Below, one piece after another: positions 481-6,653 of a stretch of 10,802 nucleotides of DNA. Made by a program: the position numbers and the translations under genes. The notes beneath the pieces were generated by a model, which was not told where the DNA came from, ran no database searches, and saw only the letters and a program-made list of their open reading frames with translations. Numbering within the stretch: position 1 is the first letter of the stretch; every line of letters begins with the position of its first letter. Source of the DNA: a virus (Duplodnaviria > Heunggongvirae > Uroviricota > Caudoviricetes); the IMG/VR virus record IMGVR_UViG_2698536392_000023, positions 1 through 10,802 of that record; one strand, given 5' to 3'.

Positions 481-491
481 GTCCATAAGAA

Positions 492-511
492 AGCCCCTCC
501 GGAGAGGGGCT
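492..511. other. 8-bp perfect inverted repeat AGCCCCTC-CGGA-GAGGGGCT; with the 452-480 hairpin forms a back-to-back hairpin pair
   Basis: Arms 492-499 and 504-511 are exact reverse complements; on the minus strand it is followed by TTCTTAT. Confidence 0.45.
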
Positions 512-707
512 GGAGAGTGGCGCTATGTGCCATTGCATGGTGCCGGGTGCCTCCCGGTGAATTCAGTACCAGCACCTGAATCCGCGATTATCCCATATAC
601 CTACTCGCTGATTGCCCCTCCGCACAGGGGGATTCACCATGCCAGTTTCTTTTAACAAACTCCCCGCAAACCAGACAACAGTCAACCGCCTGAATTGTGA
701 GACATTT

Positions 708-747: not shown

Positions 748-824
748 TGGCGCGTTGTACTGGATTCGAACCAGTGACCGATTGCTTAGAAGGCAATTGC
801 TCTGTCCGGCTGAGCTAACAACGC
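748..824 (-). tRNA. tRNA-Arg, anticodon UCU (reads AGA)
   Basis: Reverse complement GCGTTGTTAGCTCAGCCGGACAGAGCAATTGCCTTCTAAGCAATCGGTCACTGGTTCGAATCCAGTACAACGCGCCA folds as a cloverleaf: perfect 7-bp acceptor stem, GCTC/GAGC D-stem, anticodon loop CTTCTAA, T-loop TTCGAAT, encoded CCA. Confidence 0.85.
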
Positions 825-837
825 ATGATGCATATAA

Positions 838-914
838 TGGACCGCCATCGGGGACTTGAACCCCGCGCAGCCAGCTTCGAAGGCTGGCGCTCTTTCCTGA
901 TGAGCTAATGGCGG
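838..914 (-). tRNA. tRNA-Arg, anticodon UCG (reads CGA)
   Basis: Reverse complement CCGCCATTAGCTCATCAGGAAAGAGCGCCAGCCTTCGAAGCTGGCTGCGCGGGGTTCAAGTCCCCGATGGCGGTCCA: 7-bp acceptor stem CCGCCAT/ATGGCGG, anticodon loop CTTCGAA, T-loop TTCAAGT, encoded CCA. The 5' nucleotide is C, which is unusual. Confidence 0.75.
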
Positions 915-921
915 TATGTGA

Positions 922-997
922 TGGTGGACCTTGCTGGATTTGAACCAGCGGCCTGGCGATTATGAGTCGCTCGCTCTCACCACTGAGCTAAAGGGCC
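922..997 (-). tRNA. ileZ: tRNA with anticodon CAU; body resembles the Ile2 (lysidine, ileX/ileZ-type) class rather than Met
   Basis: Reverse complement GGCCCTTTAGCTCAGTGGTGAGAGCGAGCGACTCATAATCGCCAGGCCGCTGGTTCAAATCCAGCAAGGTCCACCA; anticodon loop CTCATAA, T-loop TTCAAAT, encoded CCA. Acceptor position 3-70 is a C/T mismatch. Ile2 versus Met isotype is from recalled similarity and phage context. Confidence 0.75.
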
Positions 998-2345: not shown

Positions 2346-2873
2346 TTACCCGAGCACGCCGGTTGCAAAGGCGTGATCAAGAAAACGAAAAATTAAATCA
2401 ACCTGGGAACCATGCTTTTCTTCGAACGCCAGTGGATCCGCATGAAGCTCGTTGTGATGCTCCCGACACAGCGGTAGCGTGAAAATATCGTGGGATTTTG
2501 TTCCCATTCCGCCCTGACCATGACCAATCAGATGATGAGGATCGTCCGCTGGCTTACCACAACACGCACACGGCTGTGTCTTTACCCAGCGTGTGTATTT
2601 CTCATTTACCCAGCGGCGACGTTTAGGTCGTTTCATGAAGGATTCCGGAGACTCCGGATCAACGGCAATGCTGACCACCGTCTTTTCCTGTGGTGGGTTC
2701 TGTTGCTGGTGGGTGTGAGGTGGTAGCGCAATATTTTTTGTGCGCTGCTTCAGTATGCTGGTGGCGGTCTGTTCTCCCGGTATGATGTCGCTTTCACGGT
2801 ATACGGAGCGGATTTTTTCCGCCGGTAATCCCAGAGAACAACGCGCTACTGCCTCAGGTAGTGCATCCACCAC
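2346..2873 (-). CDS. HNH-like zinc-finger protein, DUF968/YdfU-like C-terminal region (175 aa as drawn; start uncertain, may be the 3' part of a frameshifted longer gene)
   Basis: Motif CACCGKPADDPHHLIGHGQGGMGTKSHDIFTLPLCREHHNELH. ORF begins with GTG and has no recognisable SD; the same frame stays open upstream to 2954; 28-nt overlap with the upstream ORF. Confidence 0.55.
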   Translation of the reverse strand: MVDALPEAVARCSLGLPAEKIRSVYRESDIIPGEQTATSILKQRTKNIALPPHTHQQQNPPQEKTVVSIAVDPESPESFMKRPKRRRWVNEKYTRWVKTQPCACCGKPADDPHHLIGHGQGGMGTKSHDIFTLPLCREHHNELHADPLAFEEKHGSQVDLIFRFLDHAFATGVLG

Positions 2874-3448
2874 CTGATTGCAGGCCGCCCACAGGATAAT
2901 TCGGCCAGCGATAACTCCCTCTCCTGCGTGCCGCTTATTGCGTGACGGATGACGTCAATCATCCAGGCAACCAGATTCTGCTGAGCAAGTTGATCGAGTG
3001 ATTCTGATGTCTGGTCGCGCAGCTGGTTGTCACAGTGCCAGCACAACACCATCGCGCCGGTACCGTAACGGTGAATGACTGTTTCGCTGTGATGATAATC
3101 GCCGTGTGGCCACTGGCAGGATTTCACGTGACGTAATAACCAGTCAGACAGTGCACCAGCGCCGCCAGCTGCACGAATCACCCGCTCATCGCTGAAAAAT
3201 GGCAGCAGTGATTTATCTTCCGCCAGCGGCTGGCGAACAGTAGGAACCGCTCCAGATGGCAGCGCCCGCATGTTTTTCGGTTCCGGCTCCACCAGTATTC
3301 TGCCGTTATGGAATGCTGACATTGATTCACGGCCTGGCTTAACGATAACCAGACCGAGTTCCGGTACCAGAACAGGTCGAAGTAATACCCGCACATTACC
3401 TCCAGACGCGCTGACGGTAGCAGGCATGTGTCCGTGGCAGATGTGCAC
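2846..3448 (-). CDS. HNH-like motif protein (about 200 aa as drawn; start codon uncertain)
   Basis: Motif CQWPHGDYHHSETVIHRYGTGAMVLCWHCDNQL. ORF-track start is a GTG; first ATG is at 3427; overlaps neighbouring ORFs at both ends. Confidence 0.5.
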   Translation of the reverse strand: MHICHGHMPATVSASGGNVRVLLRPVLVPELGLVIVKPGRESMSAFHNGRILVEPEPKNMRALPSGAVPTVRQPLAEDKSLLPFFSDERVIRAAGGAGALSDWLLRHVKSCQWPHGDYHHSETVIHRYGTGAMVLCWHCDNQLRDQTSESLDQLAQQNLVAWMIDVIRHAISGTQERELSLAELSCGRPAIRWWMHYLRQ

Positions 3449-4253: not shown

Positions 4254-4409
4254 TTACTCCTCAGGTTCGTAAGCTGTGAAGACAGCGACCTCCGTCTGGC
4301 CGGTTCGGATTCGTACCTCGCAGAGGTCTTTCCTCGTTACCAGTGCCGTCACTATGACGGTAATACAGATGACGATCAGGGCGATTAACATCGCCTTTTG
4401 CTGCTTCAT
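4254..4409 (-). CDS. hokD: Hok/Gef-family type I toxin (51 aa), closest in my memory to HokD/RelF
   Basis: MKQQKAMLIALIVICITVIVTALVTRKDLCEVRIRTGQTEVAVFTAYEPEE; SD AAGGAG upstream of ATG at 4409. The ORF-track entry 4254..4466 is the same frame extended to an upstream ATG. Confidence 0.85.
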   Translation of the reverse strand: MKQQKAMLIALIVICITVIVTALVTRKDLCEVRIRTGQTEVAVFTAYEPEE

Positions 4410-4422
4410 AGCCTGCTTCTCC

Positions 4423-4451
4423 TTGCCTTTCGGCGCGTAAGAGGCTAACCT
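4423..4451 (+). promoter_or_regulatory. Candidate promoter for a sok-like antisense RNA
   Basis: Plus-strand TTGCCT (4423-4428), 17-nt spacer, TAACCT (4446-4451); predicted transcript runs antisense across the upstream in-frame ATG (4466) and its GAGG SD. Confidence 0.35.
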
Positions 4452-4584
4452 ACATGTGTCTAGCATGAAATTGGCCTCAGATTAATGTTAGGCGTCTTGC
4501 AGGACGCGTAATGTTAACTGGGGCTTTTCTCTGTCTGCCTTACGGTGGCATGCCCGAGGCAGACAGCCTCAAGCACCCGCAGCA

Positions 4585-4612
4585 ATTCTACTTAACTCTC
4601 GCTTTACCGCAA
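4585..4612 (-). promoter_or_regulatory. Candidate promoter of the hok mRNA
   Basis: Minus-strand TTGCGG (plus 4607-4612), 16-nt spacer, TAGAAT (plus 4585-4590); gives a leader of about 170 nt, typical for hok mRNAs. Confidence 0.4.
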
Positions 4613-4624
4613 ACCGTTTTTACC

Positions 4625-4646
4625 CGATATGGGAATTCCCATATCG
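4625..4646. repeat. 22-bp perfect palindrome CGATATGGGAATTCCCATATCG
   Basis: Exact reverse-complement symmetry; lies between the stop of the 34-aa ORF (4655) and the candidate hok -35. Confidence 0.9.
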
Positions 4647-4654
4647 TAATGAAT

Positions 4655-4759
4655 TCAGTTCCCTAGTCGATCCATCAAAAACACAACCAGGCAGTAAACG
4701 CCCACAACAGCAATAACAGCCAGCGCACCTTCCATTGCCAGTGAAATATCATCCGACAT
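4655..4759 (-). CDS. Small hydrophobic protein, 34 aa (MSDDISLAMEGALAVIAVVGVYCLVVFLMDRLGN), predicted single transmembrane helix
   Basis: ATG at 4759 with strong SD AAAGGAGGG 4-5 nt upstream; absent from the ORF track because it is under 60 aa. Confidence 0.5.
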   Translation of the reverse strand: MSDDISLAMEGALAVIAVVGVYCLVVFLMDRLGN

Positions 4760-4794
4760 ATTCCCTCCTTTGGTGTTAATCCCGGCGAACGTTT

Positions 4795-4878
4795 TTACCC
4801 CCACCGACAAATAACATATACTAAAAAATCAATAGCTATAGCAACGCCTGTAATTGCAAAGGCTTCAGGCCAGATCAT
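4795..4878 (-). CDS. Small hydrophobic protein, 27 aa (MIWPEAFAITGVAIAIDFLVYVICRWG)
   Basis: ATG at 4878 overlaps the stop of the DUF551 ORF (ATGA); SD GGAGG 8-12 nt upstream. Confidence 0.45.
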   Translation of the reverse strand: MIWPEAFAITGVAIAIDFLVYVICRWG

Positions 4879-5460
4879 TGGCGCACCTCCTGCGGCGGTT
4901 CTGGTAGCGGCATCCAGTCGGTTACATTGCGGCTCTGTGTTTCGAAAAATTCATCACCATTACGGACTACATCAAAAAACTCACCGTCTCGATATTGCGC
5001 ATAAAGAACGAATGCGCCATCACATAAAATAATTACGTGCTGACCATCATCCGGCATTCGCTCACTACAGCTTATCCAATCATCCAGAGTTACCGGATAG
5101 TTGGTTGACGTTTCCGAGATTTCCCGAAAATTATTGGTTGACGAACCCTTTTTTTTCCCGAAAGTTTCCAGCCTGAAGCATGGCGGCGCTGTCTGGCGGG
5201 GCAGCATATAGCGGCACGTATATTTCCGGTTCCTTATCAGCACCGGGTTGCTCTTCCAGTGAGAATGTCTTTCCGGTAAATCGATTCATATAAAGCACGG
5301 GCTCTGCTTCCAGCGAAGCCTGAGCAACAAGGGCCAGTGCTAAATCCAACTCAATTGCCTCGAGAGAATTTTTGAATGCTGTCTGTTTTACTGCAAATTT
5401 CATCGCCTTTACATTTTCACTAACATGACTGATTAACTGCTCTTTTGTAAAAGTGGTCAT
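4875..5460 (-). pseudogene. DUF551-domain phage protein split into two frames at an A8 (plus-strand T8) tract
   Basis: Frame A 5460..5131 (ATG at 5460, SD AAGGAG) ends ...REKKGFVNQ; frame B 5243..4875 reads ...FGKKKGSS... and carries the DUF551-like C-terminus (DDWISCSERMPDDG...WMPLPEPP). The frames switch at the T8 run 5149-5156. Confidence 0.6.
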
Positions 5461-5516
5461 CTCATTCTCCTTTGATGCGAATGCCAGCGACAATTGAAGC
5501 CTGATAGCTAATTCAC

Positions 5517-5912
5517 TCACAATACCGCCTCCTGAAAATTGCCCTGATAGAACGCCAGTACACGCAGCATAACTTCACTCTTCCGGCACTCGCCACAGAT
5601 TATGTTCTGTTGTCTGTCGTAGCGGCGTATTTCTCCGTCTGGTAACTTTCGAATCAATGTCTGGTCGGTTGTTTTCTCCGCTGCCTTACGCCATACGCGA
5701 TACACCTGTTCTGATGTAAAAACACCGTATTTACCGGGCATGTATAAATCGCCGCAAGCCAGTACATCCACAAGGCAACGTCTGACTGAATGCCAGCCTG
5801 CTCCCGTCGCTCTCTCCAGTTGTGATATCGTCATGCGTTCATTTTTGCGTACCAGCCCGATAATTCGGGCCTTCAGTTCTTCACGCTGTTCGTGTGTAAA
5901 AGGTTTCGCCAT
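5517..5912 (-). CDS. Hypothetical phage protein, 131 aa, possible winged-helix fold
   Basis: ATG at 5912 with GGAGG SD 7 nt upstream; segment TISQLERATGAGWHSVRRCL looks HTH-like. Confidence 0.6.
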   Translation of the reverse strand: MAKPFTHEQREELKARIIGLVRKNERMTISQLERATGAGWHSVRRCLVDVLACGDLYMPGKYGVFTSEQVYRVWRKAAEKTTDQTLIRKLPDGEIRRYDRQQNIICGECRKSEVMLRVLAFYQGNFQEAVL

Positions 5913-5927: not shown

Positions 5928-6653
5928 TCACTTTTCCGACACAATACGACCGGATGAATCGACAATCTGCCGAACAATATCCCAGTGCTTGTTCAGATCC
6001 CGCAGCGCGGCGCAGACTCGCTCCCACTTCTGAACCTGACCTTTTGCTCGGCGCAGCTCGCGGTTAGCCACATGCAGCGATGGTAGAATCAGGTCATCTG
6101 CTTTCGTTTCAGTGAACGATTGCTGCAACTTCACAATGTCCTCCACCGCTTCTGTTTTAATTTCTTCCTGTGCAGCCGTTTCCTGGACTGGTAACGCAAC
6201 ACCTGCTGGCTGAGGAAGGGCTTTACCCTCCGTTTCAGCTACGGATGCAGCTTTCTGCTCTGCCGGTAAATCAACGCCCGGTATGCAGTAACGAAATTTA
6301 CCATCCTGATTCACGCGAATCAGACGCCCTTTGCTGATTGCCATTGCCAGCGATGAATTCGCACGGCGGGAGGTAATTCCGAACATCAATGCCAGCTCAT
6401 CCGCCGTTTGTGGGCCATGATGTTCAATCGCCTCAGTCAGCATTTGCGCTGTCACTTTCGGTACCGGTGACACTGGTTCACTTTCACCAGTCTGAGTCAG
6501 CCACCACATCGACCCCTTGTTATCCGCTTCACCACGGCGCTTCAGTTTCCACAGTTCGTTGACAGCATCTTCGCGGCTGATTCCAAGGCGCGATGCCACT
6601 ACCTGTGAAGAGGCTTTTTTCAGTGCTTTCAGTGCGTCAAATACAGTTTCCAT
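5928..6653 (-). CDS. Phage protein with two tandem winged-helix-like domains and a C-terminal coiled-coil (241 aa), possibly DUF1627-like
   Basis: ATG at 6653 with GGAGGA SD; internal repeat of HTH-like segments ([22 protein letters not shown] and [26 protein letters not shown]). The ORF-track start at 6671 is a TTG. Confidence 0.65.

Follow-up and report, generated by a model that had tools for sequence, protein, structure and literature searches.

Gene context of the palindrome

The window (the whole 10,802 nt stretch of phage DNA analysed here) matches a Rac/lambdoid-type prophage of Shiga-toxigenic E. coli at 100% identity. Its early genes all lie on the minus strand, in the order ydaS/ydaT, replisome organiser, DnaC-like ATPase, DUF1627, DUF977, DUF551, two micro-ORFs, hokD, ygiW, rusA, Q and tRNAs. 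DUF968 (2346-3448, minus strand) and DUF551 (4875-5520, minus strand) are frameshifted pseudogenes in RefSeq, each corresponding to two overlapping ORFs in the window. Downstream of the Q antiterminator, as in the late regions of Stx phages, are a homologue of the STnc100 sRNA (481-671, minus strand, 138 bits) and three tRNA genes (Arg, Arg and Ile; 751-997, minus strand); an stx gene is absent from the window.

The hokD toxin gene occupies 4254-4409 (minus strand), with an overlapping mok frame that reaches 4466. The hok mRNA leader and sok region (4404-4578, minus strand) matches Rfam family RF01794 with 116.9 bits, placing the 5' end of the mRNA at 4578. Anchored on this end, a hok promoter was read from the sequence at 4585-4612 (minus strand; -35 TTGCGG at 4612-4607, -10 TAGAAT at 4590-4585), and we treat it as putative because a consensus promoter scan of the window did not call it. 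Beyond the promoter lie micro-ORF2 (34 aa, 4655-4759, minus strand; RefSeq WP_001278450.1) and micro-ORF1 (27 aa, MIWPEAF..., 4795-4878, minus strand), the 933W homologue of the latter directly abutting the hok promoter.

Between micro-ORF2 and the hok promoter is a perfect 22-bp palindrome, CGATATGGGAATTCCCATATCG (4625-4646, assigned to neither strand), whose 11+11 nt arms are exactly complementary and meet without a spacer. A first-pass annotation of the window had described it as such, as improbable by chance, as lacking a U-run and so less likely to be an intrinsic terminator, and as lying 13-34 bp upstream of the candidate hok -35; these observations were all borne out. Counted from the Rfam 5' end (4578), and with the -10 and -35 read as above, the palindrome occupies positions -47 to -68. 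A Rho-independent terminator would have a G+C-rich stem followed by a U-run, and no T-run follows 4625-4646 on either strand, nor did a terminator scan of the window return an entry there. Rfam covariance models gave zero matches over 4579-4720 even at E <= 10, and a known RNA family was accordingly rejected as the identity of the palindrome.

By a simple estimate (4^-11 x 10.8 kb) the chance of such a palindrome in a single window is about 0.003, and 3 of 300 first-order Markov simulations contained some hairpin whose arms reach 11 nt or more and whose loop does not exceed 4 nt. The palindrome is thus unlikely yet possible in one window, its improbability there is not decisive alone, and the case for its significance therefore rests on comparison with other sequences.

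Relation to the hok system

The palindrome is not part of the hok system. It shares with the known cis elements of hok/sok (promoters, tac/fbi/ucb structures and the Sok target) its physical adjacency, lying 12 nt upstream of the putative hok -35. It differs from them in lying outside the hok transcript, since the Rfam model stops at 4578, and in not being conserved with the hok promoter: hokW of 933W and most other hok loci share the promoter and lack the palindrome, which leaves the link to hok proposed in the first-pass annotation unsupported. Among E. coli genomes, 4899 match the hok region versus 852 that match the palindrome region.

The specific form of that proposal, in which the product of a nearby gene binds the palindrome as a hok operator, fits both the position of the palindrome (-47 to -68 relative to the hok start) and its perfect dyad symmetry, which is typical of operators. 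We nevertheless regard it as highly improbable. Most hok loci with this promoter lack the palindrome, and the identical sequence occurs in contexts that lack hok (KilA-N genes, Dhillonviruses, other phyla). The nearby helix-turn-helix proteins put forward as partners (5517-5912 and 5928-6653) are DUF977 and DUF1627, which look restricted to enterobacterial prophages, whereas the palindrome is also found in lytic Dhillonviruses and in distant phyla, at loci seemingly unrelated to the window prophage. A KilA-N domain protein is a likelier partner. What does stand is the more general part of the earlier suggestion, that a protein-binding site is likelier than a terminator: as set out below, the element is most plausibly a DNA site to which a protein binds.

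The region between micro-ORF1 and hok is variable. 933W has the same hok promoter, but its homology to the window stops at about 4622 and the micro-ORF1 homologue comes directly next. Relative to this arrangement, the window has an additional 175-bp cassette made up of the palindrome and micro-ORF2. A string search showed that the cassette, missing from 933W-type loci, is bracketed by an 11-bp direct repeat, CGTTTTTACCC (plus strand, left copy at 4615-4625 and right copy at 4790-4800); direct repeats of at least 11 bp were found beside 9 of 1230 random positions. Many of the viral contigs retrieved by the hok-promoter pattern lack the palindrome, and those carrying it differ in their distal flanks, so that upstream of hok there are at least four junction types; a variant of the palindrome with 1 nt deleted is found in 13 hok loci. 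Depending on the prophage, the slot between micro-ORF1 and hok contains nothing, micro-ORF2, the paa region, an ORF6N gene or a KilA-N gene. It can be considered an insertion hotspot, because the KilA-N/BstA-like cassette of a sister prophage (described below) replaces the hok -35 region at this place.

Distribution of the palindrome

A search for further copies found the exact 22-mer at 63 loci in contigs representing one genome per species, from about nine phyla (about 0.03 loci expected, as calculated for 596 Gb), and in more than 119 viral contigs. This recurrence rules out a chance palindrome. The genomes concerned range from 29 to 70% GC and belong to Cyanobacteria, Bacteroidota, Bacillota, Chloroflexota, Spirochaetota, Armatimonadota, Saccharibacteria and Alpha-, Beta- and Gammaproteobacteria. 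Contamination or a vector artefact was rejected, since the flanks are diverse and match the composition of their hosts. Each genome has the 22-mer in 1-6 places, essentially all of them on phage DNA.

More than half of these loci (36/63) have the exact 22-mer within a gene for a KilA-N domain protein (Pfam E-values of 1e-19 to 1e-27), in Cyanobacteria, Alpha-, Beta- and Gammaproteobacteria, Bacillota, Chloroflexota, Spirochaetota, Armatimonadota and Bacteroidota. The first-pass annotation had named membership of a known repetitive element as a finding that would tell against its reading. In spirit that is what emerged, the palindrome belonging to a widespread family of conserved elements, but the family is not one that we found described: literature searches with the 22-mer sequence, or with KilA-N combined with palindrome or inverted repeat, returned nothing relevant.

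The 22-mer is also present, in the frame that reads DMGIPIS, within long ORFs that do not encode KilA-N (L004 929, L032 3681, L065 6321, L129 2172 and L181 1382). One example lies in a phage AAA_24 ATPase, in its C-terminal linker, and another in a GC-rich Azospirillum, in an ORF of 1988 aa.

Selection on the palindrome inside KilA-N genes

Within KilA-N genes the palindrome has a constant position, between the ...FL.ELS helix and the KGG...QGTWVHP motif of the domain. At 30 loci the 22-mer is translated as D-M-G-I-P-I-S. In six Bacteroidota species (L003, L008, L020, L040, L044 and L062) the same 22-mer is read one base out of this frame, as R-Y-G-N-S-H-I, and the palindrome of Bacteroidota KilA-N genes is lengthened to 26-32 bp.

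To assess the constraint on this site, two samples of KilA-N genes were drawn without reference to the nucleotides of the palindrome. The first, based on the degenerate peptide pattern M-G-I-P-I ... G-T-W-V, contains 18 non-redundant genes (less than 80% flank identity). Within the palindrome, these genes use the codons GAT (15/15), CCC (18/18), ATA (18/18) and TCG (11/11); equally conserved residues outside it use every synonymous codon. The synonymous sites within the palindrome are frozen. The second sample, based on the downstream motif [QGR]GTW[VLM][HD][PE], contains 41 distinct genes, which were aligned with MAFFT. Over a 12-pair dyad, 90.7% of cells are paired in this alignment, compared with 76.8 ± 1.0 after shuffling and 27-50% when the partners are slid. 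Both sides have changed in 10 of the 12 pairs, and compensatory cells number 54 against 12.6 expected.

Other perfect palindromes of 22-24 bp occupy the same place in homologues (GGTCCATGGGAATTCCCATGGACC, CCGATATCGGAATTCCGATATCGG, TCGAAACGGGAATTCCCGTTTCGA and CGGAAACGGGATATCCCGTTTCCG), as does the variant CCGTCGTGC-ATATTC-GCACGACGG, in which the GIP peptide is lost; variant types include ATATCGG, AAACGGG and TCCATGGG. Homologues thus have amino acids altered on both sides of the dyad with the symmetry retained. Together with the frozen synonymous sites and the alternative reading frame, this covariation led us to reject conservation of the peptide DMGIPIS as the cause.

Symmetry of this kind could also be kept by a hairpin in RNA. 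In the window, such a hairpin would form in a minus-strand transcript at the end of the micro-ORF message, where it could stabilise or process the upstream transcript or insulate hok from read-through. The predicted fold is stable (9-bp stem, AAUU loop, -12.9 kcal/mol alone, z = -4.3) and begins 8 nt past the stop codon of micro-ORF2; other orphan copies likewise sit just past stop codons (of helicase-primase and ORF6N genes, and before a terminator at L057 and L183), and in one Dhillonvirus record the matched region includes an annotated 'terminator'. We judge this explanation improbable all the same. Apart from the missing U-run, hok loci of the 933W type manage without the palindrome, and the symmetry runs through what would be the loop, up to 26-32 bp in Bacteroidota. 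The covariation among gene copies is moreover strictly Watson-Crick, with no excess of G·U on the sense strand: non-Watson-Crick cells comprise 13 G·T versus 15 A·C, whereas an RNA hairpin should tolerate G·U above A·C on the transcribed strand. Compensatory changes without an RNA-type wobble bias therefore make a protein-binding DNA site most plausible, and the constraint in KilA-N genes points to symmetry at the DNA level rather than to an mRNA hairpin.

By sequence, the members of this family are two-fold symmetric over 22-24 bp with a GGAATTCC-type core, and the 22-mer of the window is the commonest variant in genes. The window copy does not lie inside KilA-N coding sequence. As no KilA-N gene is encoded in the window (gene and domain content checked) and only 36 nt align to one, it is an orphan copy. 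Taken together, these comparisons establish the window palindrome as an orphan member of a DNA element that is under strong structure-preserving selection inside KilA-N genes.

The palindrome accompanies the KilA-N domain regardless of the C-terminal domain joined to it, and is also found on giant-virus contigs. KilA-N genes with family palindromes are present on the giant-virus MAG contigs L193, L226, L234 and L243, and L234 has tandem KilA-N paralogues with different variants, ATATCGGGATCCCGATA and ATATGGGGATTCCCATAT (at 1383 and 1794). In a distant KilA-N homologue of Klebsiella phage 2b LV-2017 (L351, 33% identity), the perfect palindrome TAAAGGTGGGA-TTT-TCCCACCTTTA is unrelated and lies some codons further along. 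Short palindromes occur in orf11 of phage D3 (CCTCG-GATT-CGAGG) and in Synechococcus phage S-SRP02 (GCCGG-AATC-CCGGC). Among relatives with a solved DNA-bound structure, only yeast Mbp1 was found, at E ~0.3.

A KilA-N/BstA-like gene in a sister prophage

A related prophage of E. coli AR_0372 (L267) carries the exact 22-mer inside a gene of 257 aa, which is oriented oppositely and placed between hok and micro-ORF1. The product of this gene combines a canonical KilA-N domain with a BstA C-terminal domain: it matches PHROG 6287 'BstA abortive infection' (E 3e-89), and the PADLOC BstA model over the C-terminal domain (E 3e-21), and is 32% identical to BstA of phage BTP1 in the C-terminal half only. 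WP_000200358.1 is an E. coli KilA-N protein of this BstA-like type, with its KilA-N domain at residues 1 to about 115. The entire cassette (L267 3490-4645) has its own promoter region and terminator and stands in place of the hok -35 region; the promoter of the KilA-N gene contains no additional copies of the site in L267.

The window shares more than the palindrome with this gene. A stretch of 36 nt (4622-4657, plus strand), consisting of the palindrome with 3 nt and 11 nt of flank, aligns to L267 4001-4036 at 32/36 positions (89%), the window flank TAATGAATTCA corresponding to GAGTTAATTCA, which encodes ...S-E-L-I-Q in the KilA-N/BstA-like gene. The stop codon of micro-ORF2 (TGA, 4655-4657) lies inside this conserved flank. 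Descent from such a gene is therefore the best account of the window copy, which retains just the palindrome and a few bases on its flanks. Among E. coli genomes, 137 have the cognate KilA-N gene and 732 an orphan copy, a rarity of the gene that counts against the reading preferred below.

BstA blocks phage DNA replication, and a prophage escapes its own BstA through aba, an element in the bstA locus that acts as DNA and not as RNA or peptide (Owen et al. 2021, PMC8585504). The element acts on replicating or high-copy DNA and is homologue-specific; in BTP1 it is 63 bp long, covers the gene start from -29 to +34 and requires its CCCGCC direct repeats (PMC8585504). The KilA-N palindrome resembles it in being a short DNA element (neither RNA nor peptide) inside a KilA-N(-like)/BstA locus, and would also be homologue-specific and act on replicating DNA; like bstA, the palindrome-bearing E. 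coli gene encodes a BstA C-terminal domain. As is the case for aba, the site differs between homologues, which bear different perfect palindromes, even as two paralogues on one contig. The palindrome differs from aba in lying in the middle of the domain and in being tied to canonical KilA-N domains with any C-terminus. The two are not identical: the BTP1 element is unrelated in sequence (63 bp with terminal CCCGCC direct repeats, and not palindromic), and a search of BTP1 bstA found no palindrome of the KilA-N family. The location of aba is inside a bstA locus, and bstA is missing from the window; the parent copy of L267 does lie in a gene with a BstA C-terminal domain. Since the BTP1 aba sequence is different and the N-terminal domain of BTP1 BstA is divergent (only the C-terminal domain being common to the E. 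coli protein), the parallel is one of principle and not of membership.

The reading that we prefer, tentatively and at somewhat less than an even chance, is that the palindrome of the window serves as an orphan recognition site for KilA-N and confers immunity in the manner of aba, the anti-BstA element. A dimeric protein would recognise the element, the most plausible candidate being the KilA-N domain whose coding sequence surrounds it, so that the KilA-N gene would hold its own 'self' mark. In abortive-infection proteins that join KilA-N to a BstA C-terminus, the site could be the functional counterpart of aba, switching BstA off on the replicating prophage. In the window, which lacks the cognate gene, the small cassette that separates micro-ORF1 from the hok promoter would retain the site and about 14 nt from the flank of the gene. 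Once the phage DNA replicates, the site would bind or titrate KilA-N/BstA-like proteins of other prophages, which would make the phage immune, the site serving as a DNA decoy; any effect on hok transcription would be incidental. As the palindrome goes with KilA-N whatever the C-terminus, even in giant viruses, its primary role need not be defence.

Orphan copies in other phages

Upstream of hok, further orphan copies lie beside the paa region and directly after two ORF6N genes with different C-termini. In a Xenorhabdus locus, a similar fragment of KilA-N gene is kept beside the palindrome. Lytic Dhillonviruses, in which a KilA-N gene is not detectable, have the 22-mer about 20 nt past the stop codon of the helicase-primase gene and beside GCGGGACA iterons, which are probably their origin of replication. 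Here the site is part of a polymorphic 54-bp indel composed of the exact 22-mer and a 32-bp duplicated unit. The site is present in phages KarlBarth (L433 2478-2760), JLBYU37 and SD276, absent from HK578 (L435), SO-1 (L436), TheodorHerzl and jat, and inserted as two tandem copies in PNS1 (L434). In seven Dhillonviruses picked by flank similarity, three copies are exact, three have 2-7 changes and one is deleted, which resembles the divergence of the flanks. Purifying selection on orphan copies is thus not visible in these comparisons.

Other orphans occur as non-coding arrays of 2-5 different family palindromes (xxxxGGGAATTCCCxxxx with differing arms) spaced by about 40 bp (L016 2527-2705, L041 7830-7975, L052 4447-4497, L119 13855-13915, and L142 12386 and 12721). 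The large ORFs beside the L016 array and a neighbouring gene in L142 had no Pfam matches. L142 is an AT-rich phage contig in which the stretch between two family palindromes (12480-12720) is apparently non-coding and looks structured; the adjoining gene resembles, by eye only, a T5orf172/GIY-YIG gene.

Beside 36 other orphan loci, genes of phage replication and of the nin region predominate, with AAA_24, AAA_25, DnaB and Rep_O enriched. This enrichment, the Dhillonvirus copies between the helicase-primase gene and the GCGGGACA iterons, and the position of the window copy about 2 kb downstream of replication genes would all suit an element of phage DNA replication, such as an accessory site of the origin or a priming signal. 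Such a role is nonetheless very improbable: the site is dispensable, being absent from HK578, SO-1 and many other Dhillonviruses as well as from 933W-type prophages, and its location inside KilA-N coding sequence would be left unexplained.

Flanking direct repeats were seen in three settings only: the window, where they measure 11 bp, the Dhillonviruses, where they measure 25-32 bp, and one further locus. Because of this restriction, a transposon-like target duplication was rejected as a general explanation. The combination of many copies per genome and a constant target-site duplication that marks MITE- or REP-like elements was not found. Orphan copies look acquired rather than random, judging from the junction types upstream of hok, the copies after ORF6N genes, the Dhillonvirus insertion, the arrays and the replication and nin genes beside them, and this favours the preferred reading.

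They could, on the other hand, be neutral scars. The palindrome would then matter only in KilA-N genes, and the window copy would be a functionless hitch-hiker with the hok/micro-ORF2 cassette. By extruding or folding, it would be a hotspot of breakage and of illegitimate or short-homology recombination that leaves trimmed fragments at module junctions. Several observations agree with this: the palindrome is exactly at the mosaic boundary where 933W homology ends (about 4622), copies of an 11-bp direct repeat stand on either side of the cassette, KilA-N gene flank persists beside the palindrome both in the window (about 14 nt) and, as a similar fragment, in Xenorhabdus, the decay of orphan copies roughly keeps pace with that of their flanks, and presence or absence varies among otherwise similar phages. 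Scars would, however, hardly explain the non-coding arrays of 2-5 different family palindromes or the tandem duplication in PNS1, nor why placement beside replication genes recurs in unrelated phages. Two of the junction types upstream of hok (T1 and T2) also have 0/22 differences in the palindrome versus about 15% in the flanks, although this evidence is weak (calculated P ~0.03). We consider a neutral origin rather unlikely, but it is the main rival of the preferred reading.

The preferred reading of the window copy as a captured recognition site can be extended to the family as a whole, in a form that we find speculative and on balance doubtful. KilA-N genes of bacteria, phages and giant viruses would each hold a palindromic 'self' site that covaries among homologues and is recognised by the encoded protein. 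Phages, lytic ones included, would capture single, tandem or mixed-array copies as DNA decoys against abortive infection by KilA-N proteins (such as relatives of BstA), the copy upstream of hok being one such captured key.

Comparison with other DNA elements and significance

The parS sites are chromosomal centromere sites near the origin that are bound by ParB, and one of them is inside the B. subtilis spo0J/parB gene. Like parS, the KilA-N palindrome is a palindrome whose nucleotides are conserved across phyla and that can sit in the gene of its binding protein (putatively KilA-N in our case). It differs in its sequence and in the protein family concerned (ParB for parS), and a role in spreading or partition is not implied for it.

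REP/BIME elements, MITEs and the Rickettsia palindromic elements are small palindromic repeats that colonise genomes, some of them in frame within genes. The KilA-N palindrome resembles these as a short palindrome that is found both intergenically and in frame in unrelated ORFs, sometimes flanked by direct repeats. Unlike the REP/MITE type of repeat, it is only 22 bp long, has one to few copies per genome (essentially all on phage DNA), lacks a constant target duplication and has a home, a conserved position in one gene family. It also lies at a junction of exchangeable modules in the nin region, as do lambdoid morons and mosaic-boundary sequences, but to our knowledge such boundary sequences are not conserved across phyla or under compensatory selection inside a gene.

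We found no description of the KilA-N palindrome in the searchable literature. For BstA-type defence and its DNA-based self-immunity, only a single aba element has been mapped. A palindrome in KilA-N genes that is cross-phylum, independent of reading frame and evolving by compensation provides a specific candidate for what this little-understood DNA-binding domain binds. If the proposed role is true, orphan phage copies would represent a new type of anti-defence that is free of protein. Irrespective of function, the palindrome is a striking case of selection at the DNA level overriding codon choice, across genomes of 29-70% GC. Natural phages already differ by the site, KarlBarth and JLBYU37 being with it and HK578 and TheodorHerzl without.
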